DNA from: an uncultured Oscillospiraceae bacterium
GTDB lineage: Bacteria > Bacillota > Clostridia > Christensenellales > CAG-138
Assembly: GCA_964476505.1 (NCBI GenBank)
Contig: CAYZAW010000003.1
Span: 2,462-66,461, forward strand
Length of the DNA stretch: 64,000 nucleotides
Direction of reading: 5' to 3'
Positions 27,540-55,402 of this stretch are shown here, piece after piece. Positions within the stretch are counted from its first letter, which is position 1. Each line of letters opens with the position of its first letter. Position numbers and translations under genes: made by a program. The notes under the pieces are model-generated. The model had not been told where the DNA came from and ran no database searches. It saw nothing but the letters and a program-made list of their open reading frames with translations.

Positions 27540-28343
27540 TTATTGAAACACCTGTTTTAAACGGCGGTAGCTATTCGTAAATGCGTCCATATCACCGTAC
27601 AGGTCGCTGTACACCTCCACGAATGCCGGGCCGGTATAGCCCATATCGTCAAGCGCACGCTTTAGCGCCGCAAAGTTGCAGTTGCCTTCAAAGGGCAGTA
27701 AGGGAACGGCGCGGTCTTTTTCGATGCGGTAATCGCACAGATGTACGTTTGCCAGTTTATCGCCGATGGCGGCAAGGTAGCCGGGCCATTCCTGCCCGCT
27801 TCTAGCCGCCTGCTTTACATCCAGCGTAAAATACAACCAGTCGGTCTTGGCGGCATCTAAAATACGGGCGGCAAACGCAGGCTCTGAAAAGAGGCACCAG
27901 CTTACGTTTTCCCATGTAAGCGTTACGCCGTAGCTGTGCGCAAGCGCACACAGATCGCGGGTGATGGGGCCAATTCGCGTGAGCTCCAAATTTCTTGCGG
28001 CACCCCGTAAAAGTGCGCTGCCGTGAAACACATAGTACTTTGCGCCCAGCGTTTTTGCCCCTTGCAGCACCTTTTCGTACAGCGCCCACGCATCCTGCCG
28101 TTGGCGGGGGTGGATGGAAAACAACTGCGCCTCAAACTGCACGCCCATGGGATGAACGCTGTACGGCGTTAGCCCGCTTTCTTTTATTCGCCGGTCTACC
28201 AACGAGATAAACGCCGGTTCGTACTCCGAAAACGTATTTAAGAATACCTCACAAACGGACGCGCCACAAGCCTTGATTTGCGAAAAGCTGTCTTCCAGTG
28301 GGAAACGCGCAAACAAGCTTGCGGTAGATATCCCCAATTCCAT
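27540..28343 (-). CDS. sugar phosphate isomerase/epimerase (xylose isomerase-like TIM barrel)
   Basis: 267 aa. Overall pattern of the AP_endonuc_2/TIM-barrel family (YYVFHG, LTWEN, HLCDY). Substrate unknown. Confidence 0.65.
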   Translation of the reverse strand: MELGISTASLFARFPLEDSFSQIKACGASVCEVFLNTFSEYEPAFISLVDRRIKESGLTPYSVHPMGVQFEAQLFSIHPRQRQDAWALYEKVLQGAKTLGAKYYVFHGSALLRGAARNLELTRIGPITRDLCALAHSYGVTLTWENVSWCLFSEPAFAARILDAAKTDWLYFTLDVKQAARSGQEWPGYLAAIGDKLANVHLCDYRIEKDRAVPLLPFEGNCNFAALKRALDDMGYTGPAFVEVYSDLYGDMDAFTNSYRRLKQVFQ

Positions 28344-28426
28344 GCCTGCGTCCTCCCTTCATACTGCCATGCAGTATATCAAAAAAACCGATTTTGTGAA
28401 AGCCGTTTACGCGTATTTCTTCCTTG

Positions 28427-28435
28427 TGTTATACT
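28427..28435 (+). promoter_or_regulatory. extended -10 (TGt-TATACT) ending 7 nt before the DUF3810 ATG
   Basis: gTGtTATACTgtgcggtATG. A TTTACG -35-like hexamer lies 18 nt upstream. Confidence 0.4.
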
Positions 28436-28442
28436 GTGCGGT

Positions 28443-29597
28443 ATGGAACAACAGGATATGCAAAAACAAAAACAGAAAAAACGCCTGTCGCCCGAATGGC
28501 GGTTTGTATTGCTGCGCCTGCCGTGGCTGCTTTTGATACCGCTTGCCATGTGCTTGGCGCATGTTGCCTCCCGTAACCCGCAGTATATTGAGGATATCTA
28601 CGCAAAGAGCATTTATCCCGTGATAAATCAAATCGTGGGAACCATATTCTCCTTTGCGCCCTTTTCCGTTGTGGAGCTGGTGTTATACGGGTTGATCATC
28701 GGGCTTGCGCTGTTTGTGATCGTAAGCGTTGTTCGTATGATTACGGGCAGTATGCCGGTGCACCGGTTCGTAAACAAGCTGGTTTCTCTTGGCATTGCCT
28801 TTGGCGTACTGTTCAACCTGTTTTATTTTTCGTGGGGCTTCAATTATTTCCGCCCGTCCATTGCAAACGCCATGGAGCTAAACGTACACGAACGCAGCCA
28901 GCGGGAATTGGAAACGCTTTGCTATTCTCTGGCGGAGGCAGCAAACGATCTGCGGACGCAAGTAAACGAGGACAGCACAGGCGTATTTACGCTGCCCGCA
29001 GGCACGACCCTTGCGGACTGCTTCCAAAAGGCTGCCGATTCCTATACCGCGCTTGGAAAAGAGTATCCCATGTTTACCTACGCACCGGCAAAAGCAAAGT
29101 ATGTGCTGGCCTCGGAGGCCATGAGCTGGGCAGGCATTTCCGGCATCTTTGTGCCGTTTACGGCGGAATCCAACTTAAACGTGCATCAGCCGCTTTTAAT
29201 GATTCCCGTATCCGCCGCACACGAAAATGCGCATGCCTGCGGCATTGCCCCGGAAAATGAGGCAAATTTCGTGGGATTTCTCGCCTGTATGTACAGTTCC
29301 GACACGACCTTGCAGTACTCCGGCGTGATGCTGGCGCTCATCAACAGCGGCAACGCCCTGCACGACAGCGACGAGGCCGCCTATGACCGGCTGTTTGCCA
29401 CTTATTCGGAGGGCGTTGTGCGTGACATCAAGCATTACAACGCCTATTGGAAGGCTTACGAAGGCCCCGTGGAGGAGGCCATGACGGAAATGAACGACAA
29501 TTACCTGAAATACAACCGGCAGGAAAGCGGCGTAAAAAGCTACGGGGAAATGGTGGATTTGCTGCTGGCTTGGCTGGAAAAGGAAAGCGCCTCTTAA
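28443..29597 (+). CDS. DUF3810-like membrane-anchored putative zinc metallopeptidase
   Basis: The track ORF begins at 28278 and overlaps the divergent gene. The first plausible start is ATG 28443 (MEQQDMQKQKQKKR...). TM segments near the N-terminus and an HExxH motif (AHENAHACG). Confidence 0.6.
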   Translation: MEQQDMQKQKQKKRLSPEWRFVLLRLPWLLLIPLAMCLAHVASRNPQYIEDIYAKSIYPVINQIVGTIFSFAPFSVVELVLYGLIIGLALFVIVSVVRMITGSMPVHRFVNKLVSLGIAFGVLFNLFYFSWGFNYFRPSIANAMELNVHERSQRELETLCYSLAEAANDLRTQVNEDSTGVFTLPAGTTLADCFQKAADSYTALGKEYPMFTYAPAKAKYVLASEAMSWAGISGIFVPFTAESNLNVHQPLLMIPVSAAHENAHACGIAPENEANFVGFLACMYSSDTTLQYSGVMLALINSGNALHDSDEAAYDRLFATYSEGVVRDIKHYNAYWKAYEGPVEEAMTEMNDNYLKYNRQESGVKSYGEMVDLLLAWLEKESAS

Positions 29598-30646
29598 AGA
29601 AGCGCTTTTTTGATATTCTCTGCAAATGCCGCCGCCCGTTTTTCAATACCGGGAAGCGTTTGTATCTCGCCGGGATCGTTAGCGGTTTCCAGCATGCAAA
29701 ATCCGGGCGGCAGGTAAAAGGCTTTGTTCATGTTCAGGCTGGAGATGAGCTGCATGCCTACGATATCTCCTCCGCTATATCCGGACACCACGATACCGAA
29801 CAACTGCTTCTCGTAAAAGCGCCTTCTGCGAAACAGCCCCGTGAGGCGGTTGATGAACGCATTTAAATTTGCGCCCAGCGCATCGTTATAATTGGGGCAC
29901 AGCAGCAGCAGCCCGTCGCATTCCGTAATGGCCGGATACAACTGCTCCACCATCACACCGCCGTAAAAGCAATTTCCCTGCTCGCTAAAATGCATACAGG
30001 TGGTATAGGCACAGCCCACGCAGTCCACCACCGCGCCGTTACGAAGGGTAATTTCCTGCAATTGGATTTCTTGCGGCAAACGCTCCTTTACCATGCTCCA
30101 CAACAACAGCGTATTAGAGGTGGTGCGGTTACTGGCGTGCAGCACCAGCAGCTTTGGGTTAGGCCTTTTTTCTATTGGCGCAGCGGTCAGCCGCTCCACA
30201 AGCGCCGCCGTTTCCGCACGGTACGCCTCCTCCGGCATGATACCGCTGTAATTTGCCACAACGCGGTAGTTGTGCAGCGTTCCCGTGCCTTCCGCAAGAG
30301 GTCGCCCCACAAAGGCGCAGCCGGCTGCGTTTGCCGCCAGCACAAAGGCGCGGGCGCAATCCTTGGTATACAGCTCCTCCTGCCCATCTATCACGATACC
30401 GCCGGTACAGCCCGCAAGCGCTTCCTTATGCCTGCGAAGCCAAGCCATGCTTTCGTATAAAGCGGGGTTATATCCGCCTACTTCCAACGCCGCCGCAAAC
30501 AGCACGGTGCTATCAGGCTGTATATGCGCCGGATGCTCCACCGCCGTGTGCGGGGTGTTCATAAGCGCATGCGCCAAAAGGCCGTCCAGCCGCTTAGAGG
30601 ACGCGCCCATTTGGCATACGATCAGTTTTTTGCCCGATTCCGTCAT
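29594..30646 (-). CDS. tandem flavodoxin-like / NAD(P)H-dependent FMN reductase-like protein
   Basis: 350 aa. The C-terminal half (KLLVLHASNRTTSNT...LLLLCPNYNDALGANLNAFINRL) matches the flavodoxin-like FMN reductase pattern with a Cys cluster CVGCAYTTCx8C. The N-terminal half also looks flavodoxin-like. ATGA overlap with the upstream gene. Confidence 0.55.
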   Translation of the reverse strand: MTESGKKLIVCQMGASSKRLDGLLAHALMNTPHTAVEHPAHIQPDSTVLFAAALEVGGYNPALYESMAWLRRHKEALAGCTGGIVIDGQEELYTKDCARAFVLAANAAGCAFVGRPLAEGTGTLHNYRVVANYSGIMPEEAYRAETAALVERLTAAPIEKRPNPKLLVLHASNRTTSNTLLLWSMVKERLPQEIQLQEITLRNGAVVDCVGCAYTTCMHFSEQGNCFYGGVMVEQLYPAITECDGLLLLCPNYNDALGANLNAFINRLTGLFRRRRFYEKQLFGIVVSGYSGGDIVGMQLISSLNMNKAFYLPPGFCMLETANDPGEIQTLPGIEKRAAAFAENIKKALL

Positions 30647-31824
30647 AGCAAGCTTTCCTGCTGCACCAATGTGTCGTACGCGTTTTTAAGCCGCGCCATC
30701 AGCGGCTCCGGTATAGGTTCCACTTCCCAATCCAAACCCGCTTGTGTAAACCGGTTATAGCAGCCAAAGTAGGCGTTTCCCAAGGGGATAGCGCTATAAT
30801 GCCAGTCTCCCCGGATGGCGGCAAGGATAGAAAGCGCCCCCGAGGACAGCGCCGGGGCGATATACGGCTTAAAGCCCGTTTCGCGAAGCGCCAGATTGGC
30901 CTGCACCACCTGCTGCGTCAGTTCACGGGAAAGCACATCATCATACGCCGACAGGCTGTTTGCGATCACTAGCGCCTGCCCGTGAGGGCCGTACGCGCGG
31001 CCTTCCGATAAAAACGATTGAAAGCGCGGCTCCTTTTTTGCGTAATACGCGGCGCGGGCGTTCATTACCCCAAGGCCAAAGCCCTGTATCTGTTCCGGAC
31101 GAAGGCCGTTCCCGTCCCACTCGCCCGCTTTGTTTTGATTGCTGTATAGAAACGCCGCGCGGGACAGCACATCCACCGGGTCAGACACCACACAGAACAA
31201 TCCCTGATACCGCGCCGCTCTTGCCAGCTTTGCGTAGTGCTTGATGATCGCCGCATTTCCCGCAAGCTGCGCCATGCGCACGTCCGTTTTCTGCGTGCTA
31301 AGCGGCGGCACGGCTTTGCAGGCGCAGAAAATGAACACATCGCATGAAAACAGCTCCTCCGCCTGCAAGGGATGCACGGCGGGCAGCGCATCATACGCTC
31401 GCGGCCAAGCGATCTGGTTCATTTCAAAGGCATAGCGCTGCATCTGCGCTTGATTTACGTCGTAAATGCCGATACGCTCTATCACATCTCCGCCCAACAG
31501 CACCAGCCCCGTTAACAGCGTTGCTCCTACGTCTCCCAGTGCCAGCAGATGCATCCGTTTTTTCCCTGACGAAAACGGTACGGAAGGCATTTTTGCCGTA
31601 CAGCCCCAGCAGTTGTTCACCGCACGGGCTGTGCCGTTACGAATGGCGCTTTGCTGGGCCGGCGTAAGCGATACCTCCTGTGTATGCCCGGTTTCGTTGA
31701 GCCATGCAATGCCCGCAGCTTCGGTAAGCTGCCATGGGCGCGTGACGCAAAACGATCCCATGGAGGAACGCTTTGCCTGCTCTAAAATGAATACGGTTTG
31801 CCCGTTGTATTGCTCGCTTTGCAT
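30643..31824 (-). CDS. LDH/MDH-superfamily 2-hydroxyacid dehydrogenase-like protein with an N-terminal extension of about 90 aa
   Basis: 393 aa. Rossmann LLALGDVGATL...IGIYDVN. Counterparts of the LDH catalytic residues are present: VRMAQLAGN (R-x-x-x-L..N), VVSDPVDVL, NARAAYY (Arg) and YGPHGQ (His). Confidence 0.55.
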   Translation of the reverse strand: MQSEQYNGQTVFILEQAKRSSMGSFCVTRPWQLTEAAGIAWLNETGHTQEVSLTPAQQSAIRNGTARAVNNCWGCTAKMPSVPFSSGKKRMHLLALGDVGATLLTGLVLLGGDVIERIGIYDVNQAQMQRYAFEMNQIAWPRAYDALPAVHPLQAEELFSCDVFIFCACKAVPPLSTQKTDVRMAQLAGNAAIIKHYAKLARAARYQGLFCVVSDPVDVLSRAAFLYSNQNKAGEWDGNGLRPEQIQGFGLGVMNARAAYYAKKEPRFQSFLSEGRAYGPHGQALVIANSLSAYDDVLSRELTQQVVQANLALRETGFKPYIAPALSSGALSILAAIRGDWHYSAIPLGNAYFGCYNRFTQAGLDWEVEPIPEPLMARLKNAYDTLVQQESLL

Positions 31825-31825
31825 A

Positions 31826-34800
31826 TTACCCTCGTTCTATCATGTCGCCAACGCGCAGCAGCGCTTCAATATCGCTTGTAACATACACCGAAGGCGGCAG
31901 GTTCACATCGTAAGACAAGCTGCCCCGATCCGGCACCCTTGGCCACAGCAGTGCCTCACCCAAACGGTTGAGCGTTAAGTTGCGTTCATACAGCAGTTGA
32001 TGCTCTTTTTCCAGCGTTTCCAGTATCGCCCTCGCGTTTTCCAAGCAGGTGAGCGAAAGCCGGTATACCGCCTCCTGACTCACATCCGATATAAAGCCGG
32101 GGTACGCGTAGGGCAATATCTGGTTGATGGAGGGCAGCGTATGCAGGCTGCGCCTTGCGCTTTCTCGAAGCACGCTGTCTCCGCCCAAGAAGGGATACAG
32201 CATGCTTTCCACAAACCAGTACCGCAGATTGGGAATGAAATACACGCAATCCACCTCGCGCCCCTGTACCGCCATCAAGTCCTTGCCCCTGCCGGACAGG
32301 ATTCCAACCACGATCTTTTTGATGGACAGGCCCGCCTCAACAAATAGCGGATCGAGCGCCTCTAAGCGGTAGCCCTTATGCAGCAGGTCGTCCGCCAATA
32401 TGACGGGACGGCGGAAGGAATGGATGACCCGAATCTGATTCATCAGGCTGGAATAGCCCGGGTATTCCGTAATGGTAAAGGATTTTGCGTCCGGCGCGTA
32501 TATCTTTTCGGCGTGCAGCCCTTTTGTGACCGTGTTTGGCACCACAACGCCGCGCAGTATTTTCCCGTACGGTACGCACATGTATTCGCCAAGCGGGCGG
32601 GAGCCGTCTGTTGCTGTAACGTTTCCGTTTGCCGCAATGATCTTTTGGGTAAGCGCGTGGTTCAAAAGCCCCGCGTGAAAGGACAGCACCAGCCGCCCCG
32701 GATACAGCTCCGACATTGCCTTGGAAAAGCTCTTATGCGTATCGTTTAGCACCTGCTCCACGGCAGGCCTATCTCTTAGGGGCGCTTTGATGCCCTGCTG
32801 CACATCCTCGATTAGGGCGATGGGCGTTCGCATATCCACGATATAGATGTGCTCGCGCTCCTCCTCTCCCGGCAGCTGCACAAAGCCTTGCCTTAAAAGC
32901 GTGCCGCGAAGCTTCGCGTCGTCCGAAACGCCGTTCCCGTGATAAATGGCATAGGTATAATCCTGTTCCAGCAGCCTTGCCAGCGTTTCTGTTAACAGCA
33001 GGCGGAATACATCCCGCCGGTACACGCCCGCCGCAAATATGCCGGACAGTACAGCGATCTTGCCGGAGGTATGCCTTCGCACATATTCCGACAGCGCAAT
33101 GCTGCCAAACTCGCGGAACAGCTCCGCTCCGTTGGTGCGATACACACATGCACAGCCAAGCGGCCTGTCCCCCGCCGCCTCGTCCACCATTTCCATTACA
33201 TACGCGTTGGGGCGGCTTAGGCTGTACTGTATCACCTGCGCAAGCTGCTGGGGCTCCATGTCCGTCCCCTCGGCGGCAACAGCCATCACGCGATCCAACA
33301 GTGCGCCGTCGTCCGGGCTGCGCCGCCTGAACGATAGCGTTTCCGACGGCAGCTGCTCCTTATACTGCGGCTCCCGCAGATACAGGCCGTTATCGTAAAT
33401 GTAATTTTGCGCCACCGGGTCAACCAGCATGGAGATATCCCGGTTATAGTCCACATTCTCGCGAATGCGGCTGGAGCTCACATCCTCCAGATAGGTAGGC
33501 AGCGCCAGCTCAATGATCTCGTTTTTCACACGGGAGCGAATGACCCGCTTTTGCTCTTCCCATGCACCGTCTTCCATATTACGGCGGAAAATCACATGGG
33601 GCAGGTGATGGATGGAATGCGCCGTAGGCGCTTTGCGGTAAGAGGAGGCGTTTAGTATCACGTCGCTTCCCGCAACGATGTACAGCGTTTGCCCCGGAAA
33701 CTGCCGCTGCAACAGTACCAGATCCTCCGGGTTTGCCAGATTCACCGGAATATCGTCCGGGAAAACGAACACCGAAAACGCATCCGCCACAGACATGTTC
33801 ACGATTCGCCGCCGCACGTCATGAGGCTGGGTGCGCTTTGACCAGCTGAATTCGTCCACCGCCAGATACACGTCCAAGCCCAGATCGCGTATGGCCTTAA
33901 CAATGCCCTTATGGCTGGAGGAAAAGGGGTCGAAGGTGCCCGGGAAGAACGCAACGCCCTTGGATTCCGGGAACTGGAACGGGCCGAAGCGCACCGTTGC
34001 GTTGGTGATAAAGCGGTAAATATGGTTCAGCGACGCCGCACTGTTAAAGAACGTAAGTGTATCCTGCCGCTGCTCGTACAGCAGCGTCAGCAGCTTTTTA
34101 TGGATGCGCTTGAACAGCGTGCGCTTGCGTTCGTATAACAGGTCGCTTCCGAACAGCTGTTTGCCGATTACTAAAAATGCCTCTTGGCATACCGAATCGT
34201 TATAATGCGCAAGCCCGGAGAGCAACAGCCCCAGCATGCGATCCCGGCGGGCGGTAAAGGTATCGTTATCCTCCTGAAAGCGCGCTTGGTATTCCTCATC
34301 GTAATGCAGCAGCAGCACGCCAAGCGTTGGCATGGTAACGCAGGCGGCGCGTTCGTTTGCGGATTTGATGTACTTTTGGAATTCGTCTATGATCTCGTCC
34401 AGCTCTTTCGGGTGCAGGTATAAGGCAAACCGCCCCAAATACCGGGGAATATACTTGGAAAACTCGTACTCTGCCGTTTCCAGCCCCTTGGTAAGCTCAA
34501 TGGCGATCTCGTTTCGCTGTTCCAGCGTTAGGCGGCCGGCAATGCGAATGAGCGCATCTCCCGCCGCATGCCGCACGGTGATTCGCTCGCTCACGCGCAC
34601 CAAATTAGCAAGGTGCGTGGCTACCTGCAGCGCTTTATCCTGCTCCTCCGTTCGCAGGTGGAACAGTAATAGCTCGATGTTGATCTCCTTAATGACCCAC
34701 GGTGTAGCCGTTTTTAAATTGTCTAAAAACAACCCCGCATAATCGGAGGCGATGAGCGCGCTGTTGCAGGCCTCCGCCTGCCGTTCCATGCCCGGCAGCA

Positions 34801-36703
34801 TGCTATAAATACAATACTGCAGGTAAAGGATGCTGATATCCTGCTTCTCCGGCAGCGCCTGTATGATTTGTTCTGTTTGCAGCCGCATGCCCTGCCGAAT
34901 TTCATCATCTGTCAGCACATATTGCAAGAACCGCAGCGCCACGGCGTGATTGCGGCGTTCCTGCGTGTGCTGCATCACATACAGCGCCAGCGCAAAGGGG
35001 CCTATTAAGTTATTGATTGATAAATAGCGCAGCGGCACCATACACAGGCTGTCCAGCAACACGAAGGGGTACGCCTCCGTGCGGTACCGCTCCTGCGTAA
35101 AGCAGGCAAGGTACGGCTCCAGATACCGCTCGGCATCCTCCGGCCTGCAATTTTCTAGGATAGACTGTAATACGATCTTTAGCGTATACCCGATCCATAC
35201 CCGGTGCTTGGCCGCCACCTTGTGATCCGGATTCAATATCCGTTCTATGTATTGTGCCCATAGGTCAAAGCTGGTTTCCCCAACCGGCGACGGCCTTGCA
35301 TGGCGGGGCAGCTCCTTGCGGTATTCCACATCGTAATGGGTGAGGATGTTACCTAAAAGCGCTGCCGCCTGCCGCCGGATATCCCCTTGGTTGTGCAGGA
35401 ACAGCTCGTATAAAAACCGCATGGTGATCAGCTTTTGCCGCTGGGTCATGTAGGTAAAATACTCTTCCAGTATGTTGATATAGGCGCGGATATGCTTCCA
35501 GTCCTTTTCCGTGCGGGCAGCCTCCAGCATATCCACAAAGGCCGTTTCGGAGCTAAAGCGCCGCATGAGCGACAGGTTCTCCCGAATGGCGCAGAACTTG
35601 AGCCCCTGCACGGCCTCCTGCGGCGTCATAAGGGCGGGGTGTTTGCTGACGGCTTGACCGGGCACGTTGGAAAACGGGTCGGTATTCACGCCGAGCGACA
35701 CCATATAATCCTCAAAATCGTGCAGCTTACGGTATACGCGCTCATACCGGCGGCGCTTTTTATCGTCTACATGATCCAGCTTGGAAAGTATAACGGAATA
35801 GGATTCGTCTAGCGTATATACCCGTATCTGTTCCTTGCCCAAAGCATCGTGCGTGCTTTTCACGCGAAAATCCGCGTAGATCAACAGTAGCGATTCCACC
35901 GGCAGGTTTTCCAGCTCCAAATCCCAAGTGGAATGGTTGGCGGCAATATGCGCGATTCCATCCAAAGAGTAACGCTTGAGCCACTCGTCCGTATAGTAAT
36001 AATGCAGGTACGGAATGCGGGCGGTTTCGTCGCCCTTGCAGCCGAATTTACCGATATCGTGCGACAGCGCCGCCGCGGACACCAGCGGCAGGTCTACCGC
36101 CGCCTCGGTATTGATAAGCTGCCGCGCCGTATGCATGGCAACGTGATGCACGCCCGCAATATGCCCCAGCGTATCAAACGGCATGATCTCCCGCCCGATA
36201 TGCAGCAGCTCTTGCACAAAGGAACGATCCAACAGCTTTAAAAAGCGCTCGTACGCATCCTTTGTTTGGCTGTTCTCCAACTCCTGCGGCTGCGCCAGCG
36301 CAAACCATGTATGCGGGTCAAACTCGCCTTCTGCTTCCTCCGCCTGTAAAAAAGTGCGGTACGTCAAAAGAAAGAACAATGCCGCGCGGTTCATTTGGGT
36401 ATCCCGGCTCTTTGGCGGGTCGGACGGGAACAACTGCTCCACAAGGTCGTGATACAGATAGTTTAGCCACCCCTCCGGCGGCTCCTTGGCGTACAGCTCC
36501 ATTACCGGACGGCATAAGGAAAGAACCGCGTCAGCCGTGACCGGCGTGCCGGTGCGATACTGTGAAACGCGGTTCTTAAAGTCTTGCTCGCGCAACAGGA
36601 GAAGCAGCGCCTTTTTTGTGATCTGCGCCGTTTTTAGGAATTCCCTTTGGGAAAGGTTATTTAAGAGGCTTTGGTAGAATGCGTTTGGCGCCGTTTTAGG
36701 CAT
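31826..36703 (-). CDS. 1625-aa multidomain protein: HD phosphohydrolase + helical (HEAT-like) repeats + NadD-like nucleotidyltransferase + GNAT-like + PRTase-like regions
   Basis: Uninterrupted ORF with AGAGGAG 8 nt before the ATG. Motifs verified in the DNA: HDIGK at 36047-36061, GTFDPF at 33923-33940 and VILADDLL at 32381-32404. Function unknown. Confidence 0.8.
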   Translation of the reverse strand: MPKTAPNAFYQSLLNNLSQREFLKTAQITKKALLLLLREQDFKNRVSQYRTGTPVTADAVLSLCRPVMELYAKEPPEGWLNYLYHDLVEQLFPSDPPKSRDTQMNRAALFFLLTYRTFLQAEEAEGEFDPHTWFALAQPQELENSQTKDAYERFLKLLDRSFVQELLHIGREIMPFDTLGHIAGVHHVAMHTARQLINTEAAVDLPLVSAAALSHDIGKFGCKGDETARIPYLHYYYTDEWLKRYSLDGIAHIAANHSTWDLELENLPVESLLLIYADFRVKSTHDALGKEQIRVYTLDESYSVILSKLDHVDDKKRRRYERVYRKLHDFEDYMVSLGVNTDPFSNVPGQAVSKHPALMTPQEAVQGLKFCAIRENLSLMRRFSSETAFVDMLEAARTEKDWKHIRAYINILEEYFTYMTQRQKLITMRFLYELFLHNQGDIRRQAAALLGNILTHYDVEYRKELPRHARPSPVGETSFDLWAQYIERILNPDHKVAAKHRVWIGYTLKIVLQSILENCRPEDAERYLEPYLACFTQERYRTEAYPFVLLDSLCMVPLRYLSINNLIGPFALALYVMQHTQERRNHAVALRFLQYVLTDDEIRQGMRLQTEQIIQALPEKQDISILYLQYCIYSMLPGMERQAEACNSALIASDYAGLFLDNLKTATPWVIKEINIELLLFHLRTEEQDKALQVATHLANLVRVSERITVRHAAGDALIRIAGRLTLEQRNEIAIELTKGLETAEYEFSKYIPRYLGRFALYLHPKELDEIIDEFQKYIKSANERAACVTMPTLGVLLLHYDEEYQARFQEDNDTFTARRDRMLGLLLSGLAHYNDSVCQEAFLVIGKQLFGSDLLYERKRTLFKRIHKKLLTLLYEQRQDTLTFFNSAASLNHIYRFITNATVRFGPFQFPESKGVAFFPGTFDPFSSSHKGIVKAIRDLGLDVYLAVDEFSWSKRTQPHDVRRRIVNMSVADAFSVFVFPDDIPVNLANPEDLVLLQRQFPGQTLYIVAGSDVILNASSYRKAPTAHSIHHLPHVIFRRNMEDGAWEEQKRVIRSRVKNEIIELALPTYLEDVSSSRIRENVDYNRDISMLVDPVAQNYIYDNGLYLREPQYKEQLPSETLSFRRRSPDDGALLDRVMAVAAEGTDMEPQQLAQVIQYSLSRPNAYVMEMVDEAAGDRPLGCACVYRTNGAELFREFGSIALSEYVRRHTSGKIAVLSGIFAAGVYRRDVFRLLLTETLARLLEQDYTYAIYHGNGVSDDAKLRGTLLRQGFVQLPGEEEREHIYIVDMRTPIALIEDVQQGIKAPLRDRPAVEQVLNDTHKSFSKAMSELYPGRLVLSFHAGLLNHALTQKIIAANGNVTATDGSRPLGEYMCVPYGKILRGVVVPNTVTKGLHAEKIYAPDAKSFTITEYPGYSSLMNQIRVIHSFRRPVILADDLLHKGYRLEALDPLFVEAGLSIKKIVVGILSGRGKDLMAVQGREVDCVYFIPNLRYWFVESMLYPFLGGDSVLRESARRSLHTLPSINQILPYAYPGFISDVSQEAVYRLSLTCLENARAILETLEKEHQLLYERNLTLNRLGEALLWPRVPDRGSLSYDVNLPPSVYVTSDIEALLRVGDMIERG
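32159..32701 (-). other. type-I phosphoribosyltransferase-like region (aa ~1335-1515)
   Basis: RRPVILADDLLHKGYRLEAL keeps the hydrophobic-DD signature of the PRPP motif but lacks the TxGxT loop. The context resembles the PurF C-terminal domain. Confidence 0.4.
32804..33331 (-). other. GNAT-like region (aa ~1125-1300)
   Basis: The beta-strand/helix pattern IAVLSGIFAAGVYRRDVFRLLLTETLARL...YAIYHG...LRQGFVQL resembles an acetyltransferase fold, but the Q/RxxGxG/A motif is degenerate. Confidence 0.35.
33380..33958 (-). other. NadD/cytidylyltransferase-like region (aa ~916-1108)
   Basis: FFPGTFDPFSSSH is a degenerate form of GxFxPxHxGH. IVAGSD is present. The tail VSSSRIRENV...LVDPVAQNYIYDNGLY resembles the NadD ISSTxIR...YI..n.LY end. 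Confidence 0.6.
35834..36211 (-). other. HD-domain region of the 1625-aa protein (aa ~165-290)
   Basis: GHIAGVHHVAMH ... LSHDIGK ... ANHSTWD ... LLIYADF, following the H...HD...D pattern. Confidence 0.7.
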
Positions 36704-36743: not shown

Positions 36744-37250
36744 CTATTCCGGCATAAAGGTCGTAATCACGGTAAAGGTGTAATCCATCATCTGCACATC
36801 CATATCGGTACCGATCTGCGCATAGATATGGTTCTTGCCCGGATAGATCACCAGCCCAAAGCTTTGTGCGGAATGCAGCTCGGTATTGGCTACCTCCGTG
36901 CCGTCCTCGTCAAAAAAGGCCATGCCCATTTGCCCGAACAGCGTTTTGGGATAGGTGCTGTTGCACACGCCGTCTAAATACGTGCCGCCTCCGTACTCAT
37001 ATACGCGAATCTCCTCAAAGGACAGGTATTGCAGGTAATGATCCTCCGTATACACCACGCTGCCACGCGCATCGGTAGGGCGCGGCTCCGGCGTGATGCT
37101 CTGCGACAGCGGCATAGGCGTTGGCGAGGGCGATGGCGACGGCGTTGGCGCAGTTGCCCACACGGGCTGCTGTGATATGCAGCCCGAAAGCAGCGCCGCC
37201 AAAAGAGCGGCTATAAGTATCAGCAAAATTGAATGGCAGCCGCGCTTCAT
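36744..37250 (-). CDS. small secreted lipoprotein of unknown function
   Basis: 168 aa. Signal peptide plus lipobox (LLSGC) and a Pro/Ser/Thr linker (APTPSPSPSPTPMP). TAATG overlap with the pncB stop. Confidence 0.7.
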   Translation of the reverse strand: MKRGCHSILLILIAALLAALLSGCISQQPVWATAPTPSPSPSPTPMPLSQSITPEPRPTDARGSVVYTEDHYLQYLSFEEIRVYEYGGGTYLDGVCNSTYPKTLFGQMGMAFFDEDGTEVANTELHSAQSFGLVIYPGKNHIYAQIGTDMDVQMMDYTFTVITTFMPE

Positions 37251-38692
37251 TACTCTTCCACGGTGGGCTGACAGCTCCGTAACAGCCCCTGCTTCAGGTC
37301 GTACAGCTTGTCCGAAAGGTCTACCTTATACACATGGGGGTTCAAGAGCCGCTTATACTCCTCCCACATGGTAGCAAGCTCCTGCTTGGCATAGCTTTGG
37401 ATGGTTTTGATGTCCGGAGACTCATACACCTGCTTGCCGTTTTGGAAGATGGGCACCAGCAGCTCTCTTGCGGTAAAGTCCGTCAGCACCATGGACTTCC
37501 ACGTTTGCACGGGGTCGAAGATGCGAAGGGGCTTTGTGTCGTCTATCACTTCGTCTGCCAAGGCGATCAAGTCCGCAATGGCCTTGCCGTTCTTTCTTCG
37601 GTATAGACGATACACCTTTTTATAGCCGGGGTTGGTTACCTTAGCGGGGTTATCGCTGATTTTGATTTTGGGAATCGTTACGCCGTTGACCACCTCTGCG
37701 GACATTTTATAAACGCCGCCAAGCGCCGGGCAGTCGTCTGAGGTGATGAGCCTTGTTCCAACGCCCCACACGTCGATGCACGCACCCTGCGCCTTAAGAT
37801 CGCGGATAACCGTTTCGTCCAAGTCGCTGGAAGCGAATATCTTGGCTTTTTCGTACCCGGCAGCGTCCAGCATGGCGCGGGCTTTTTTGGATAAATACGC
37901 CAAGTCGCCGGAATCCAAGCGGATGCCAATGGGTTCGTAACCCTTTTGACGAAGCTCGTCAAAGCATTTGATGGCGTTTGGCACGCCGCTTCTAAGCGTA
38001 TCGTAGGTATCCACCAACAGCATGCAGGTATCCGGGAACACGTCTGCATACGCACGGAAGGAATCCAGCTCCGTTGGGAAGCTCATCACCCAGCTGTGTG
38101 CGTGGGTGCCCTTCACGGCGATATCGAACATCTGCCCGGTCAGTACGTTACTGGTAGCGTCGCAGCCGCCGATGATGGCTGCCCTTGCGCCGTAAATACC
38201 GGCATCCGGCCCTTGGGCGCGGCGAAGGCCGAATTCCAGCACGGAGTCTCCGTTTGCGGCATACACCACACGGCTTGCCTTGGTGGCGATAAGCGTTTGA
38301 TGATTGATCAAATTCAACAGCGCTGTTTCTACCAGCTGTGCTTCCATGATAGGCGCTTTTACGCGTAGCAGCGGCTCGTAAGGAAACACGATGGTACCCT
38401 CCGGCATGGCGTATATCTCGCCGGTGAAGTGCAGCTCCTTTAAATACTGCATGAAGGATTCATCAAACAGCTTCAGCGAGCGAAGATAGTTTAGATCCTC
38501 CTCTGAAAAATGCAGCTCATTGATATACTCGATAGCGCTTTCCACACCCGCCATCACGGCATAGGCGCTGTTTTCCCGGGTCTTTCTGAAAAACAGGTCG
38601 AATACGGCCTCGTTGTTGGACATGCCGTGTTTATAGTAACCGTACATCATCGTTAGCTGATACAGATCCGTCAGCATCGTTAGATTTCGCAT
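37250..38692 (-). CDS. pncB: nicotinate phosphoribosyltransferase
   Basis: 480 aa. The LTDLYQLTMMYGYY N-terminus and GTHAHSW motif are typical of PncB. Confidence 0.9.
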   Translation of the reverse strand: MRNLTMLTDLYQLTMMYGYYKHGMSNNEAVFDLFFRKTRENSAYAVMAGVESAIEYINELHFSEEDLNYLRSLKLFDESFMQYLKELHFTGEIYAMPEGTIVFPYEPLLRVKAPIMEAQLVETALLNLINHQTLIATKASRVVYAANGDSVLEFGLRRAQGPDAGIYGARAAIIGGCDATSNVLTGQMFDIAVKGTHAHSWVMSFPTELDSFRAYADVFPDTCMLLVDTYDTLRSGVPNAIKCFDELRQKGYEPIGIRLDSGDLAYLSKKARAMLDAAGYEKAKIFASSDLDETVIRDLKAQGACIDVWGVGTRLITSDDCPALGGVYKMSAEVVNGVTIPKIKISDNPAKVTNPGYKKVYRLYRRKNGKAIADLIALADEVIDDTKPLRIFDPVQTWKSMVLTDFTARELLVPIFQNGKQVYESPDIKTIQSYAKQELATMWEEYKRLLNPHVYKVDLSDKLYDLKQGLLRSCQPTVEE

Positions 38693-38714: not shown

Positions 38715-39761
38715 TTATGCTTCTGTTTCGGGGTCTTTTAGTGCTTCCGAAGCGGCGGGTTCCTCGGCTTTTGCCGGGGATTCCTCTGTGGTGGGCTCCT
38801 CGGTTTTTGCCGGGGACTCCTCGGCGGGTTCCTCAGCCGCTTTCGCTGTTTCCTCCGCCGGCTGCTCCGTTTCTGTTGCAGGCGTATCCGCAGTTACTTT
38901 GGCCGCTTGTTCGCCAGCCTCCTCCGGTATGGCCTCCGGCGTTGGCCAAATCAGCCTACCGAGTTTTTTCTCGCGGGCTTTACGAATCAGGAAGAACGCG
39001 GCAACGCCCACCACAAACAGGAGGGAGAGCATTTGCGAAACACGGATGACGCCGGGGATGAGCCACAGGCTGTCGCCCCGAAGCGGCTCCACCAGCATCC
39101 GTTCAAAGCCGTACAGCAGCAGATACCAGCAAAATACGTCGCCGTCGTGCTTGGTACGCTTGCGGATGATAAACCACAGCGCCAAGAATACAAGCAGGCA
39201 CCATAAGGATTCATAGAAGAACGTGGCAAGGTGATACGGATTTGTGCAGATCTCGCCATTGAAATAATGCAGCCCGTCGATCTTGACCGCCAAGGGGAAC
39301 CACATCATGTTGGGGTCTGTTACGGCAAATCCGAAGGCTTCCTGATTGAAGAAGTTGCCCCAGCGGCCAATGGCCTGTGCCAGCACCAGCCCCGGCGCAA
39401 AGATGTCCATCATTTTGAGCATGCGCAACTTTTTCACTTTTGCATACACGAACATGCCGATGAGCCCGCCAATCATGGCACCGTAAAACGCTAAGCCGCC
39501 CTCCCAGATATACAGGATGCGGATGGGGTCTGCCAAATACTGCTCCAACTCAAAGAGCACGTAATACAACCGTGCGCCAACGATACCGCTTGGAATCAAC
39601 ACCAAGCACATATCCAGCACAAAGTCCTGCTTCATTTTTTTTCGCTTTGCTTCAACGGTGGAAAGCAGAACCGCCAGCAAAATGCCCAGCGCCATCAATA
39701 CACCGTACCAGTAAATATCTTTTCCGAATATCGTGAACGCAACACGGCTTGGATTTTGCAT
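38715..39761 (-). CDS. lgt: prolipoprotein diacylglyceryl transferase with an acidic low-complexity C-terminal tail
   Basis: 348 aa. GARLYYV, GGLAFYGA and GRWGNFFNQE motifs. The last ~80 aa are rich in E, P, A, K and T. Confidence 0.9.
   Translation of the reverse strand: MQNPSRVAFTIFGKDIYWYGVLMALGILLAVLLSTVEAKRKKMKQDFVLDMCLVLIPSGIVGARLYYVLFELEQYLADPIRILYIWEGGLAFYGAMIGGLIGMFVYAKVKKLRMLKMMDIFAPGLVLAQAIGRWGNFFNQEAFGFAVTDPNMMWFPLAVKIDGLHYFNGEICTNPYHLATFFYESLWCLLVFLALWFIIRKRTKHDGDVFCWYLLLYGFERMLVEPLRGDSLWLIPGVIRVSQMLSLLFVVGVAAFFLIRKAREKKLGRLIWPTPEAIPEEAGEQAAKVTADTPATETEQPAEETAKAAEEPAEESPAKTEEPTTEESPAKAEEPAASEALKDPETEA
38761..38822 (-). repeat. imperfect 36-nt tandem duplication inside the lgt tail
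   Basis: tcctcggcttttgccggggattcctc (38761-38786) versus tcctcggtttttgccggggactcctc (38797-38822). These encode EESPAKTEEPTT and EESPAKAEEPAA. Confidence 0.8.
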
Positions 39762-40495: not shown

Positions 40496-41326
40496 TTATT
40501 CCGTTATATCCGTTTCTTCTGTGACTTCGCGCGTATACAGCCGCACGGTATCCCCCTCTGCGATCAATGAGGTTTCGCCCCACTGCTCCGGGGGCGTATC
40601 CAGCCATGCCGTTGCGGTTGAAATATCCACATCCGCAAAACGGGTAAACACCAGCCGGTCATCACCCAGATACAGCATAGAGGGAACGGTATCGCTGCCC
40701 TCGTAATAGTAGGAGTACCAGCCGTCCTCCCGCTGCACGATGCAGCCGCCTGCGATCAGCTGTTCCGTCGGCGGTTGCTCCTCCACCGTTGCTTCCTCTT
40801 CTTCCGGCGTTTCTGTTTCTGCCTCAGACGGTATTTCCTTGGTTTGCCGGACGTTGAGAACTCCGTCTTTTAATGTGCCCCGCACCGTATCCCCGGAGCC
40901 CAGCGTACAGGAAAAGGAAATCTCCTCGTCCGTTTGCCATACGCTGCCTGTGCCATGCAGCAGACCGTAAATGCCGCCGTCAAACAGGTTTTCCGAGGTG
41001 TATAACAGGTTGGTGGGGCCATACAGCAGCCTTTGCAGCGCATACACATGGCCCTGCGCGGCTAAAAGCTCCGGCAAAAGCGTATGCGCCTCTCCCGCCG
41101 CCGCATCCGCTGCGGCGTTGGCTTCCACGCTTGCGGCATTGAACAGGTCTACAAACAGCTTGACCGGGTTTTCCGGGTCTTTTTCAATAGCCGCCTCGGG
41201 CGTGGGCGTTGGTATTGGCGTGGCTTTCGCGGCTTCCTGCTGCTGCGGCTTTGCGCACCCGGTAAAAACCAGCGTGATGCACACCGCCAGCAGCCCCGCA
41301 ATGCTCTTTTTCATGCTGTTCCTCAA
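40496..41326 (-). CDS. lipoprotein of unknown function
   Basis: 276 aa. TTG start overlapping the proA stop, though the internal ATG (MKKSIAGLLAVCITLVFTGC) is also possible. Signal peptide plus lipobox. Confidence 0.65.
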   Translation of the reverse strand: MRNSMKKSIAGLLAVCITLVFTGCAKPQQQEAAKATPIPTPTPEAAIEKDPENPVKLFVDLFNAASVEANAAADAAAGEAHTLLPELLAAQGHVYALQRLLYGPTNLLYTSENLFDGGIYGLLHGTGSVWQTDEEISFSCTLGSGDTVRGTLKDGVLNVRQTKEIPSEAETETPEEEEATVEEQPPTEQLIAGGCIVQREDGWYSYYYEGSDTVPSMLYLGDDRLVFTRFADVDISTATAWLDTPPEQWGETSLIAEGDTVRLYTREVTEETDITE

Positions 41327-42733: not shown

Positions 42734-43297
42734 CTAGCTTTCCACGCCCTCTAGGTATGCATCGATCTCGTTTAGCCGGTCGAACACGATACCCTCCTGC
42801 AGCGCCTTTTGCACATCCTCATGCAAAACGGATACGTCAAAGGGGATCTCCGTTTCCGTTTGCCGGGTATAATCCTGCTGATCGGTTTTGCTGTACCAAA
42901 GGGAATCGTCCTTTTTGGTTTGCAGCAGATAATGCGCCGGGCAGCAGGCAGGCATTTCCCGCTCGATAAGCGCATGCGTCTTTTCCAGCTCCATTATGTG
43001 CGCATTGTTCCAAAGGGTTTCCACCTGCGCCCCGGTCAGCCCCACAAGCTCCCGGTTGGCATACGCCTGCTCCAAAATATGCCCGCACTTTAAAAAGGTA
43101 TAGCGAACGGTGATCTCCGTTTGCGGCAAAATGCTTTTCTCTCCGATCTCTGCCACCTCTGCCGCAGGGAGCGTTTCCACGGCAAGCGGCTCCTGCCTAT
43201 CTGTCGGCAGTTGAATGATAAGGCCTATCAAAAGGCCTGTGACCACCAATATCGTTCCCAGCAGTATCCATCTGCCGTATTGCTTCCATAACTGCAT
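42734..43297 (-). CDS. membrane-anchored BofC-like protein
   Basis: 187 aa with an N-terminal TM segment. The C-terminal IPFDVSVLHEDVQKALQEGIVFDRLNEIDAYLE resembles the BofC C-terminal domain pattern (F.ID...L.....L..GI.F....E). Assignment is tentative. Confidence 0.4.
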   Translation of the reverse strand: MQLWKQYGRWILLGTILVVTGLLIGLIIQLPTDRQEPLAVETLPAAEVAEIGEKSILPQTEITVRYTFLKCGHILEQAYANRELVGLTGAQVETLWNNAHIMELEKTHALIEREMPACCPAHYLLQTKKDDSLWYSKTDQQDYTRQTETEIPFDVSVLHEDVQKALQEGIVFDRLNEIDAYLEGVES

Positions 43298-47988: not shown

Positions 47989-49224
47989 TTACTCTTGCTG
48001 TTTTTTATATGCCGATAGGCTTTCTTTTACCTGTTCCAGCGAGCGCCCCGTTTCCCGGGCGATACGCACCAAGTCCTCATACTCCGGCTTTTCCCTGTTT
48101 ACGCCCCAGCCGGATACTGCCTTGATTTTAACTTCTCCGTCAGGCGTTGTTATGCTTTTACTTGTTCGCGCCAGCGTATACCGGTTGCACAGGTATTCTC
48201 GCACGCCAATGGTGGTGGTATGCAAAAACAAAAGCCTTAACAGTTGCTCCTTGCTGCTTTCCCGGCAGATGCAGTACAGCAGCACCCCGGGGCGGCTTTT
48301 TTTCATGCCTGCCGCCACAGTATACACCTCTAACGCACCGCCTAAAAACAACTGCTCCTGCGCAAAGCCGATGGCCTCGGGGGTCATATCGTCTAAATTG
48401 CAGCAAAGCTCCACGACCTGCTCCGTTTGAGACTGCGTGCTGCCTATCAGCGCACGCAGGCAGTTTGCGGCAGGAAATTCCTTGCTGCCCATGCCGTAGC
48501 CTATTTTTTGTACCGTCATTTGCGGTAAGCTTCCAAAGGAAGAAACAAAATACTTCAACAGCGCCGCGCCGGTGGGCGTGCAAAGCTCTCCTTGTATCTC
48601 TTTGCTGTAAACTGGAATGCCCTGCAATAAATATGCCGTTGCTGGCGCGGGAACGGGCAGCACACCATGGGCGCAGTGAACCGTTCCGCTTCCAACGTGT
48701 ACGGCAGACGCTATCACCTGCTCGGGAGAAAGCATATCCATCAGCAGGCAAACGCCCACCACATCCGCTACCGCGTCCATAGTGCCTACTTCATGGAAGT
48801 GTATCTGCTCCACGGTCTTGCCGTGCACATGCCCCTCCGCCTCGGCGATCAGCGTATACACGGCTATTGCATCCTGCTTCACCTTTTCCGGCAGGTCAAG
48901 ATGACTTATCATATGCCGGATGCCGGGAAGCCCCGTGCCGTGCGCATGCTCTTGGGTATGCATATGGCGGTGTTCGTGATGTTCGCCGTCACGGTTTTGA
49001 CCGTCGTTATCCGCAAGCTCTTCTTCGCCGTGTACCGTGACCTCCATGTGCGTGCCGGAGATACCGCATTTTACGGAGGGAACGGCGCGTACCGCCACGC
49101 CGGGCAGACCCAGCCCGTTCATGCGGGCAATAAACGCCGCAGGTTCCGGGCAAAGCTCCAACAGCGCCGCCATCAGCATATCTCCCGCCGCACCCATATT
49201 ACATTCTAAATACAGTGTTTTCAT
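47989..49224 (-). CDS. larC: nickel-pincer cofactor biosynthesis protein LarC (nickel insertase)
   Basis: 411 aa. MGAAGDMLMAALLEL N-terminus (DUF111 family) and a His-rich stretch GEHHEHRHMHTQEHAHG (about 48937-49032). Confidence 0.88.
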   Translation of the reverse strand: MKTLYLECNMGAAGDMLMAALLELCPEPAAFIARMNGLGLPGVAVRAVPSVKCGISGTHMEVTVHGEEELADNDGQNRDGEHHEHRHMHTQEHAHGTGLPGIRHMISHLDLPEKVKQDAIAVYTLIAEAEGHVHGKTVEQIHFHEVGTMDAVADVVGVCLLMDMLSPEQVIASAVHVGSGTVHCAHGVLPVPAPATAYLLQGIPVYSKEIQGELCTPTGAALLKYFVSSFGSLPQMTVQKIGYGMGSKEFPAANCLRALIGSTQSQTEQVVELCCNLDDMTPEAIGFAQEQLFLGGALEVYTVAAGMKKSRPGVLLYCICRESSKEQLLRLLFLHTTTIGVREYLCNRYTLARTSKSITTPDGEVKIKAVSGWGVNREKPEYEDLVRIARETGRSLEQVKESLSAYKKQQE

Positions 49225-49979: not shown

Positions 49980-49982
49980 GCG

Positions 49983-51445: not shown

Positions 51446-51446
51446 G

Positions 51447-52241: not shown

Positions 52242-52256
52242 AGTTCTCCCAATGAA

Positions 52257-53273: not shown

Positions 53274-53325
53274 AAGGCGTACCTCCAATAAAAAATGCCC
53301 CAAAGGAGTCTGTTCCCTGCCGGGA

Positions 53326-53382
53326 ACCGATCGCCTTCGTGGCAATACATTATTCCAGTAATCATTGACCGATCGACCTTCG
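53326..53382 (-). repeat. direct repeat CGAAGG(T)CGATCGGT x2 in the nik/lar leader
   Basis: On the plus strand: accgatcgccttcg (53326-53339) and accgatcgaccttcg (53368-53382). Each contains the palindrome CGATCG. Confidence 0.6.
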
Positions 53383-55393: not shown

Positions 55394-55402
55394 AGCGCCC
55401 TC

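Follow-up and report, generated by a model that had tools for sequence, protein, structure and literature searches.

BIG is the label given here to a 1625-aa multidomain protein encoded on the minus strand of a 64,000-nt stretch of DNA (the window) from an uncultured Oscillospiraceae bacterium (assembly GCA_964476505.1, contig CAYZAW010000003.1, positions 2,462 to 66,461). An earlier note on this DNA, made from the sequence alone, had described the protein as a single-chain fusion of HD, HEAT-like, NadD-like nucleotidyltransferase (NT), GNAT-like and phosphoribosyltransferase (PRTase)-like modules. On the minus strand, the genes run in the order lgt, pncB, a gene for a 168-aa lipoprotein, BIG, a lactate dehydrogenase (LDH)-like gene, and an FMN_red-family flavoprotein gene (Table 1). 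BIG heads a conserved three-gene operon with the LDH-like dehydrogenase and the flavoprotein, which resembles archaeal iron-sulfur flavoproteins (Isf); this operon is new in the present analysis. Within this conserved three-gene module, BIG is an elaborate variant of the NT-plus-HD nucleotide-enzyme theme.

The open reading frame (ORF) of BIG had been described as uninterrupted over 4878 nt, and it indeed reads through without a break to give 1625 aa. Every motif quoted in the earlier note was found in the protein at the residues given, and the three motifs placed on the DNA translate as claimed (HDIGK at 36047-36061, GTFDPF at 33923-33940, and VILADDLL at 32381-32404). A Shine-Dalgarno sequence, GAGGAG, lies 5' of the ATG, homologues share the start with an M-x-K-K N-terminus at the same position, and the G+C content is even across the gene.

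Table 1. Features of the BIG locus, of the remainder of the window, and of the loci that carry HD-less relatives
Feature	Position	Strand	Basis or remark
Whole ORF, BIG	31826..36703	minus	4878 nt; 1625 aa plus stop codon, uninterrupted; full-length homologues
N-terminal helical region, residues 1-150	36254..36703	minus	AlphaFold helices; poorly conserved, 3% invariant columns
HD (HDIG-type) phosphohydrolase domain, residues 151-340	35684..36253	minus	Pfam HD; HD half of NF045665; HDIG; 32% invariant columns
HEAT/ARM-like alpha-solenoid, residues 361-905	33989..35623	minus	AlphaFold, all helical; Foldseek
NadD/NMNAT-like NT, residues 915-1110 (FFPGTFDPFSSSH ... GSD ... VSSSRIR ... YIYDNGLY)	33374..33961	minus	PF01467; TIGR00482 and NF000840; PDB profile; 24% invariant columns
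GNAT-like fold, residues 1123-1300	32804..33337	minus	AlphaFold; Foldseek; 5% invariant columns
Type I PRTase-like module, residues 1301-1540 (MCVPYGKILRG..PNTVTK, VILADDLLHKGYR, GILSGRGKDL, ESMLYPFLGGD)	32084..32803	minus	AlphaFold; Foldseek; sub-threshold PDB profile
Conserved C-terminal helices, residues 1541-1625, packed on PRTase-like module	31829..32083	minus	AlphaFold; 20% invariant columns
LDH/malate dehydrogenase-like NAD-dependent dehydrogenase, 393 aa, long form	30643..31824	minus	Pfam Ldh_1_N; PDB LDH matches
FMN_red-family flavoprotein, 350 aa	29594..30646	minus	Pfam FMN_red; invariant Cys; weak azoreductase PDB match
Predicted lipoprotein, 168 aa (LLSGC lipobox), between pncB and BIG	36744..37250	minus	Translation; no family match
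pncB (nicotinate phosphoribosyltransferase), two genes upstream of BIG	37250..38692	minus	NF006695, 712 bits
lgt	38715-39761	minus	
HD-less relatives with PPDK_N gene	L006 699-6937; L087 866-7275; L089 1-4140		
439-aa ORF converging on the flavoprotein gene	28278-29597	plus	No family match; position matches the DUF3810 gene in locus L002
276-aa ORF, 4-nt overlap with the proA stop	40496-41326	minus	No family match
187-aa ORF, upstream of proA	42734-43297	minus	No family match
Ni_insertion protein (LarC-like)	47989-49224	minus	
AIR-carboxylase family protein (LarB-like)	49221-49979	minus	
PP-loop ATPase (LarE-like)	49983-50726	minus	Weak QueC/Asn_synthase matches
CbiM/N-CbiQ-ABC metal transporter	50723-53345	minus	
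Shikimate/aromatic amino-acid operon, complete	53889-60691	minus	

A protein search retrieved 7713 homologues of BIG among 8000 scored candidates. Nearly all of the best 120 listed are 1606-1660 aa long, with 46-79% identity over ~100% of the query. The homologues are collinear and of the same length in both isolates and metagenome-assembled genomes (MAGs), and identity between families is ~45%. Relatives were found in at least 577 species genomes in a scan of one genome per species, almost all of them Clostridia. The carriers include Anaerovorax, Hominibacterium, Lentihominibacter, Anaerotignum, Blautia, and Clostridium fessum, as well as Oscillibacter, Dysosmobacter, Flintibacter, Sedimentibacter, Tissierellia, and Christensenellales-like MAGs. 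Two non-Bacillota bins, a Spirochaetes MAG (L038) and a Bacteroidaceae isolate bin (L080), hold a typical clostridial-type BIG (42-46% identity), and mis-binning is the more likely cause, rather than true spread outside Bacillota. In the source databases, homologues are named 'hypothetical protein', 'HD domain-containing protein', or 'nicotinate-(nicotinamide) nucleotide adenylyltransferase', the last being an automatic 'NadD' label. The statement in the earlier note that no characterised protein has this architecture agrees with these names and with the literature searched, in which no characterised relative and no paper describing the BIG family or the DVU_1551 family (see below) was found.

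The BIG family behaves like a core gene rather than a mobile one, because no PADLOC component model matches BIG, the LDH-like partner, or the flavoprotein partner, and because the 80 returned BIG loci come from 80 different genome records. An anti-phage defence system was ruled out by the same absence of matches for all three proteins, together with the absence of signs of mobility.

All five modules proposed in the earlier note are present. Only the HD and NT modules are detected by sequence profiles; the other three were recognised from AlphaFold models and Foldseek, and the five-module architecture is confirmed on these two grounds. The two Pfam families expected in the earlier note, PF01966 and PF01467, both scored above their cut-offs, the former on the isolated N-terminus. 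The GNAT and Pribosyltran families, also suggested there, gave no match in the C-terminal 515 aa even at E≤5. Segment-wise modelling with AlphaFold and Foldseek, a check proposed in the same note, yielded confident models with HEAT/ARM, GNAT, and type I PRTase folds. The survey of distribution and length that it proposed gave the species count and the narrow length range reported above.

Conservation was measured in 25 homologues (46-79% identity) as the fraction of invariant columns per module. It was highest in the HD domain (32%) and the NT domain (24%), followed by the PRTase-like module and the C-terminal helices (20% each), the solenoid (12%), the GNAT-like module (5%), and the N-terminal 150 residues (3%).

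The HD domain was detected by PF01966 at 26.6 bits (cut-off 22) when residues 1-345 were searched alone, and at 21.6 bits, slightly below the cut-off, on the whole protein. The model matched 13 of 14 relatives, with a best E value of 9e-8, which places BIG in the broad HD superfamily. H181, H215-D216, H234, H257, and D278 are invariant in the family. They comprise the metal-ligand pattern H...HD...D (H181, H215-D216, D278) plus two extra His residues, H234 and H257; the H..HD..H..H..D pattern is typical of binuclear HD hydrolases. The closest profile was the HD half of the DVU_1551-family nucleoside triphosphate (NTP) transferase (NF045665; 13/14 members, best E 6e-11), followed by TIGR00295 and HDIG. 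No YqeK (COG1713) model was listed at E≤1 for the 14 members, in a search whose HMMER filters may conceal very weak matches, and the HD-region profile had no match in the PDB. The earlier note had likened the HD plus NadD pairing to the neighbouring nadD and yqeK genes of Firmicutes. Because the domain is not detectably YqeK-type by profile, this parallel is one of analogy and not of family membership.

In the NT domain, PF01467 (CTP_transf_like) aligned with residues 919-1082 over profile positions 1-132 of 133 at 23.2 bits (cut-off 21), and the same match is precomputed for most homologues. The NadD models TIGR00482 (E 3e-9) and NF000840 (E 8e-9) aligned end to end with the domain at 37.0 and 35.2 bits, under their equivalog cut-offs of 112.45 and 150, respectively, and the PRK07152 alignment was confined to its NadD half. 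By these profiles, BIG is a member of the CTP_transf_like superfamily and not of the NadD equivalog. The NT family profile retrieved NadD, NMNAT, and phosphopantetheine adenylyltransferase (PPAT) structures from the PDB; the best was the NadD-like VPA0413 (3H05; E 4e-6), itself uncharacterised. A direct sequence search of the PDB with whole BIG gave a single marginal NadD match.

At the site of the NadD signature GxFxPxHxGH, BIG reads PGTFDPFSSSH; the first His and the Gly are replaced by Ser, and the last His is invariant. Across the family, this first motif has the consensus (S/T/A)-x-(S/G)-H. The NadD tail is retained as VSSSRIRE...YIYDNGLY, with S1077, I1080, and R1081 invariant and S1076 and R1079 nearly so. 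Other invariant residues are G922, F924-D925-P926-F927, H931, G1012, D1014, and Y1022, and S1013 is nearly invariant. The aromatic Y1022 sits 8 residues past the Asp of the GSD motif (D1014), which is the spacing of the nicotinate-stacking Trp in Escherichia coli NadD. The first motif is P-S-L-G-H in 3H05 and TxGH in PPAT. SSSH, which had been read as a sign of degeneration, is a variant and not a ruin, because the family keeps the last His, GSD, and the ISSTxIR-type tail invariant or nearly so, and because 3H05 and PPAT share the Ser or Thr at the first position. Judged from these residues, the NT domain looks catalytically competent. A canonical nadD was sought with the NT profile in the window and in 86 BIG loci (10 kb either side), and one PPAT-like ORF was the only result; the search is silent on whole genomes.

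The last 515 aa of BIG gave an AlphaFold model with a mean predicted local distance difference test score (pLDDT) of 86.3 and a predicted template modelling score (pTM) of 0.89, in which a GNAT fold is packed on a type I PRTase fold and followed by helices. In this model, the PRTase-like module has the five-stranded fold with a loop at the place of the 5-phosphoribosyl diphosphate (PRPP) loop after a hydrophobic strand, and the strand-DD-loop-helix geometry of a PRPP loop is present. Foldseek matched it with uracil, xanthine, and orotate PRTases (UPRT, XPRT, and OPRT) at E 4e-4 to 2e-3, probability 1.0, and a template modelling score (TM) of ~0.4. The Pfam Pribosyltran model that failed to match was PF00156. 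The family profile produced eight sub-threshold matches in the PDB, seven of them PRTase-fold proteins, including hypoxanthine PRTase (HPRT; 0.015) and PRPP synthetase (Prs; 0.065), both aligned on the Asp-Asp loop. An hhalign comparison with one OPRT returned a probability of 4%. Phage relatives of the NAD (nicotinamide adenine dinucleotide)-reconstitution type were also considered for this module; a structural search of BFVD with the C-terminal modules gave just viral GNATs and weak OPRT or Prs matches.

The earlier note had described the PRPP loop as lacking its Thr and Gly residues. The Thr positions are indeed occupied by K1443 and R1446 in DDLLHKGYR; the Gly (G1444) and both Asp residues (D1438-D1439) are kept and, like the hydrophobic strand, are invariant. 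A second loop, MCVPxGKxLRG..PNTVTK, is predicted to be disordered (pLDDT < 50) and is almost invariant, with conserved basic residues; in the model it is like the flexible loop of PRTases. BIG shares with the type I PRTases (HPRT, XPRT, UPRT, OPRT, the PRTase domain of PurF, and PRPP synthetase) the predicted fold, the hydrophobic strand-Asp-Asp-Gly loop-helix, and the flexible basic loop. It differs from them in having H-K-G-Y-R in place of the TGxT phosphate-binding residues, in the low TM value, and in the extra motifs MCVPxG, SGRGKD, and YPFIGGD, which have no known counterpart.

When the C-terminal 515 aa were searched against 1.8 billion representative proteins, only 413 matched. Among the matches listed, those of at least ~1000 aa carry the region at the C-terminus of the BIG architecture or of shorter variants, and the short ones look like fragments; stand-alone relatives of the C-terminal module were thereby ruled out among these matches, and none of those listed was an annotated relative. 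One clade of ~1200-1300 aa lacks the HD domain and starts at the solenoid. The NT His is gone from several of its members, which read FDPFSEKDK or similar, and in three metagenomic loci the gene is preceded, with overlapping stop and start, by one for an ~850-aa PPDK_N (ATP-grasp, dikinase-like) protein, which showed no similarity to the missing HD region. In two other loci (L003 and L004), a paralogous 1044-aa protein with PPDK_N and Pol-beta nucleotidyltransferase domains is encoded near BIG.

Full-length homologues at 26-28% identity (P0170, P0187, P0205, P0261) have lost the HD ligands and most of the NT motifs. They keep, nearly unaltered, the PRTase-like motifs CVPxG..PNTxTK, [IL]xDD..H.G, SxxGKD, and ESxLxPFIGG, and the PRPP-loop motif in the most distant homologues is DD..H/N.G. 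The PRTase-like motifs thus persist in the distant homologues, despite decayed HD and NT domains, and in the HD-less variants, so this sequence comparison identifies the PRTase-like module as the constant core of the superfamily and not the decayed sensor remnant that had been supposed.

The GNAT-like module gave Foldseek matches to GCN5 and FeeM at E ~5e-5 with target-normalised TM of 0.55-0.64, and also to ArsN and 6r45. BIG shares the predicted fold with GNAT acyltransferases, including pseudo-acetyltransferase domains such as the HAT-like domain of O-GlcNAcase. It differs from them in its very low conservation, in the absence of any match to Pfam acetyltransferase models, and in the acyl-CoA pyrophosphate-binding loop (Q/R-x-x-G-x-G/A in beta4-alpha3), which is absent in the 25 homologues and replaced by a loop that varies in length and sequence. 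In some relatives, part of the module is missing. The module looks non-catalytic and is probably structural or regulatory. The proposal that the degenerate modules of BIG are ligand sensors therefore holds for this module alone; the conserved motifs of the NT and PRTase-like modules speak against it.

The solenoid (residues ~360-905) was modelled as all helices with pLDDT 90.1 and pTM 0.85. AlphaFold and Foldseek agree on an alpha-solenoid of antiparallel helix pairs, and Foldseek matched it, with E values between 5e-5 and 5e-4, to CAND1, karyopherins, the PP2A A subunit, and TOG arrays. Pfam, including its HEAT models, found nothing in this region even at E≤5. The paired helices, as well as motifs such as GDIRRQAA..LGNI, are typical of HEAT/ARM scaffolds (PP2A A subunit, CAND1, karyopherin-beta); the BIG solenoid differs from these in being bacterial and set between two enzyme domains, and the likeness is at the level of fold only (TM 0.2-0.3).

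The LDH-like gene follows BIG in 76 of the 86 loci, and the flavoprotein gene in 68, most exceptions being contig ends. The guess in the earlier note that the adjacent dehydrogenase and flavoprotein are partners of BIG is supported by this synteny. The window has the LDH-like ATG 1 nt past the BIG stop, behind a GAGGG site, and a flavoprotein start that overlaps the LDH-like stop (ATGA). The LDH match is limited to the NAD domain. R183 (DVRMAQ), R257 (MNAR), and H281 (GPHG) are invariant and align with R109, R171, and H195 of LDH, with D168 apparently Asn. The partner occurs in a short form of ~320-340 aa and a long form of ~390-420 aa with a conserved N-terminal extension of ~70-90 aa; forms were recorded in the window (long) and in loci L019, L023, L034, L040, and others. 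In the flavoprotein, ~160 aa form an additional N-terminal domain, in which Pfam found nothing. The protein also has the invariant cysteines C209-x2-C212-x4-C217-x8-C226, a pattern that resembles the compact [4Fe-4S] motif of Isf. A 7-bp hairpin (AAAGCGC...GCGCTTT; 29584-29608, minus strand), read by eye, spans the flavoprotein stop, with CCTTTTCC directly after it. It may be a weak terminator at the end of the operon, and the scan did not call it because its loop is 11 nt.

Unbiased clustering of the neighbouring ORFs revealed no further widely conserved neighbour of BIG. The lgt, pncB, and lipoprotein genes stand beside BIG only in the three closest relatives (3/86 loci), and adjacency to pncB was therefore not accepted as a functional link for the family at large. 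A glutamate dehydrogenase gene (ELFV_dehydrog) lies divergently 200-850 nt upstream of BIG in ~18 loci (L001, L003, L004, L008, L009, L012-L017, L022, L029, L037, L051, L053, L074, L084) and ~6.5 kb downstream in five (L062, L064, L065, L067, L071). Genes for MgtE and a Carb_kinase (NAD(P)HX-dehydratase family) protein come after the operon in several Anaerovoracaceae loci. Upstream of BIG, Rfam found no element in the window or in six diverse loci, apart from one unrelated T-box in L032, so a riboswitch or leader RNA was dropped as a clue to the ligand. Matches to a Rex-type operator were at noise level, with 3 mismatches.

Further known systems were compared with BIG. Mycoplasma NadD-YqeK fusions (JCVISYN3A_0380; PRK07152), which correspond to the nadD-yqeK pair of Firmicutes, likewise hold a NadD-type and an HD domain in one polypeptide. 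In BIG, the HD domain is N-terminal, ~570 residues from the NT, and matches no YqeK model; SxSH replaces HxGH, and ~1200 further residues (solenoid, GNAT-like, PRTase-like) are present. The VPA0413/PRK08887-type NadD-like protein (3H05) has the same Ser-for-His first motif (PSLGH vs FSSSH or FSLSH) and an S-T-x-I-R tail; it is a 177-aa single-domain protein of low similarity. The DVU_1551-family NTP transferase (NF045665) is a nucleotidyltransferase-HD fusion whose C-terminal HD half is the closest to that of BIG; it has 359 aa and two domains, and the HD half alone matches, far below the 315-bit cut-off. RelA/SpoT and GlnD are functional analogues that combine an HD hydrolase, a nucleotide-transferring synthetase, and C-terminal small-ligand domains in one chain, as BIG does; their synthetase folds are unrelated to the BIG NT, and no messenger is known for BIG. 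In its working, BIG would by analogy come closest to a bifunctional enzyme of the NadD-plus-HD kind. In the NadD-YqeK fusion of JCVI-Syn3A, it is the HD part that hydrolyses nicotinic acid adenine dinucleotide (NaAD) and its C and U analogues, a proofreading activity (PMC9426524). A 2026 paper reports c-di-AMP phosphodiesterase activity of a mycoplasma NadD protein, and on that account NadD-type enzymes appear versatile.

We propose, with a probability of roughly one in three, that BIG is a nucleotide enzyme with several sites on a scaffold, which both makes and cleaves a dinucleotide of the pyridine type and is built around a PRTase-like core. The architecture, the conservation, the operon, and the literature precedent are the basis from which we infer the catalytic steps, the substrates, and the complex. 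The NT would adenylylate a mononucleotide, most likely a pyridine one (nicotinic acid mononucleotide (NaMN), nicotinamide mononucleotide (NMN), or an analogue), to a dinucleotide. The HD domain would split the pyrophosphate bond, either in this product or in wrongly made analogues of it, and so serve turnover or proofreading, as in the NadD-YqeK fusion. The ligand of the PRTase-like core would be a 5-phosphoribosyl compound, namely PRPP or the mononucleotide; the core would either make the NT substrate or gate both activities, and the GNAT-like fold would be a structural or regulatory adaptor. The solenoid would keep the domains together and may be where the two translationally coupled redox partners dock, which would tie dinucleotide synthesis or turnover to NAD(H)/flavin redox chemistry. 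In favour of this proposal we count the high fractions of invariant columns in the HD, NT, and PRTase-like modules relative to the GNAT-like one, the position of pncB in the window and the three closest relatives, and the catalytic Arg, Arg, and His kept by the LDH-like protein.

Several points weigh against the proposal. The NadD match scores well short of the trusted cut-offs (37 vs 112 bits), and the NT domain reads differently where NadD has its NaMN-binding SYTxDTL motif; the NT substrate may therefore not be a pyridine nucleotide. By profile, the HD domain is not of YqeK type. The pairing of the HD-less clade with a PPDK_N dikinase-like gene suggests a core chemistry that possibly has nothing to do with NAD. 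The known pyridine PRTases are all of type II, and a type I-like enzyme acting on nicotinate or nicotinamide would be unprecedented. The distant homologue P0187 (L005 4365-9026, the single such locus examined) has no LDH-like and flavoprotein genes downstream. The pncB linkage is lineage-specific, no NAD-type riboswitch or Rex-like operator was found upstream of BIG, and docking of the LDH-like protein and flavoprotein on the solenoid is pure inference.

It is possible, if unlikely, that the chemistry is an assembly line unrelated to NAD, in which the PRTase-like module ribosylates an unknown base or acid or gives it a phosphoribosyl group, the NT nucleotidylates it, the HD domain trims phosphate, and the redox pair tailors the product to a new dinucleotide-type cofactor or metabolite. 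In its favour are the weak NadD match, the universal presence of the PRTase-like core, the strict co-transcription of both redox genes with their catalytic residues and four Cys conserved, and the coupling of the HD-less clade to a dikinase-like protein, which fits phosphorylate-then-nucleotidylate chemistry. However, this assembly line has no candidate substrate, the conserved neighbourhood lacks further biosynthetic genes, and the distant clade with dead HD and NT domains and no redox partners needs a simpler role. In a wider and similarly tentative form, BIG and its redox partners might constitute an unrecognised Clostridia-wide pathway with a new type I PRTase-like catalytic heart. A dinucleotide other than ordinary NAD, either a new cofactor or a redox-linked nucleotide signal, would be made, and with the HD domain destroyed, and the solenoid would be the first bacterial PP2A-A-like platform on which a metabolic enzyme complex is assembled.

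Signalling in the manner of RelA/SpoT or GlnD seems somewhat less probable still. Here the NT synthetase and the HD hydrolase would set the level of a dinucleotide or polyphosphate messenger such as diadenosine tetraphosphate (Ap4A), the PRTase-like and GNAT-like modules would sense PRPP, nucleotides, or (p)ppGpp, and the solenoid would transduce the signal. A hydrolase and a synthetase do share one chain with C-terminal folds of ligand-binding type, the GNAT-like module has no CoA loop, XPRT with bound ppGpp (6w1i) is among the Foldseek neighbours, and HDIG-type domains commonly hydrolyse nucleotide messengers. Cleavage of Ap4A and c-di-AMP has moreover been reported for the HD domain of a NadD fusion. 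NadD-fold enzymes, however, are not known as messenger synthetases, a strictly coupled dehydrogenase and flavoprotein would be unusual for a signalling enzyme, and the PRTase-like motifs kept where HD and NT are dead speak for a C-terminus that does more than regulate these two domains.

We are more doubtful again that BIG is a housekeeping NadD with a fused proofreading hydrolase and otherwise regulatory or structural ornaments. The NadD label given to homologues by several sources, the end-to-end alignments with NadD models, the pncB gene nearby in the window, and the NadD-YqeK precedent suit this explanation. It is contradicted by scores far under the equivalog cut-offs, by the maintenance of family members without NT motifs, and by ~1400 extra, highly conserved residues that are hard to explain as ornament. 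Finally, the idea of an artefact (a wrong assembly, a false fusion of ORFs, or a pseudogene in decay) has nothing in its favour except the unusual length of BIG and is practically excluded by the thousands of collinear, full-length homologues in at least 577 species genomes, from isolates and MAGs alike, by the high-confidence models for both halves, and by the even base composition.

Hundreds of clostridial species from the gut and the environment carry a member of the BIG family, among them Oscillospiraceae, Lachnospiraceae, Anaerovoracaceae, Christensenellales-like lineages, and Sedimentibacter. The protein is very large and strongly constrained, yet it is annotated as hypothetical or, probably wrongly, as plain NadD. 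Large uncharacterised families are unsurprising; BIG stands out by its conservation, its unusual bacterial HEAT scaffold, and its persistent divergent PRTase-like core. Solving its function could reveal a regulated, proofread NAD branch in strict anaerobes or a new nucleotide chemistry on a divergent PRTase fold, and would set right the automatic NadD label, which could mislead predictions of niacin/NAD auxotrophy for gut microbes. The three-gene operon and the point-mutation targets H215/D216, H931, and D1438/D1439 offer clean experimental handles.

Elsewhere in the window, a cluster of the nickel-pincer-cofactor (lar) type (47989-53345, minus strand) lies ~11 kb from BIG and pncB. LarB uses NaAD, the NadD product. 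The shikimate operon beyond it encodes DAHP synthase, prephenate dehydrogenase, DHQ synthase, EPSP synthase, chorismate synthase, and a fused shikimate dehydrogenase-N/shikimate kinase.

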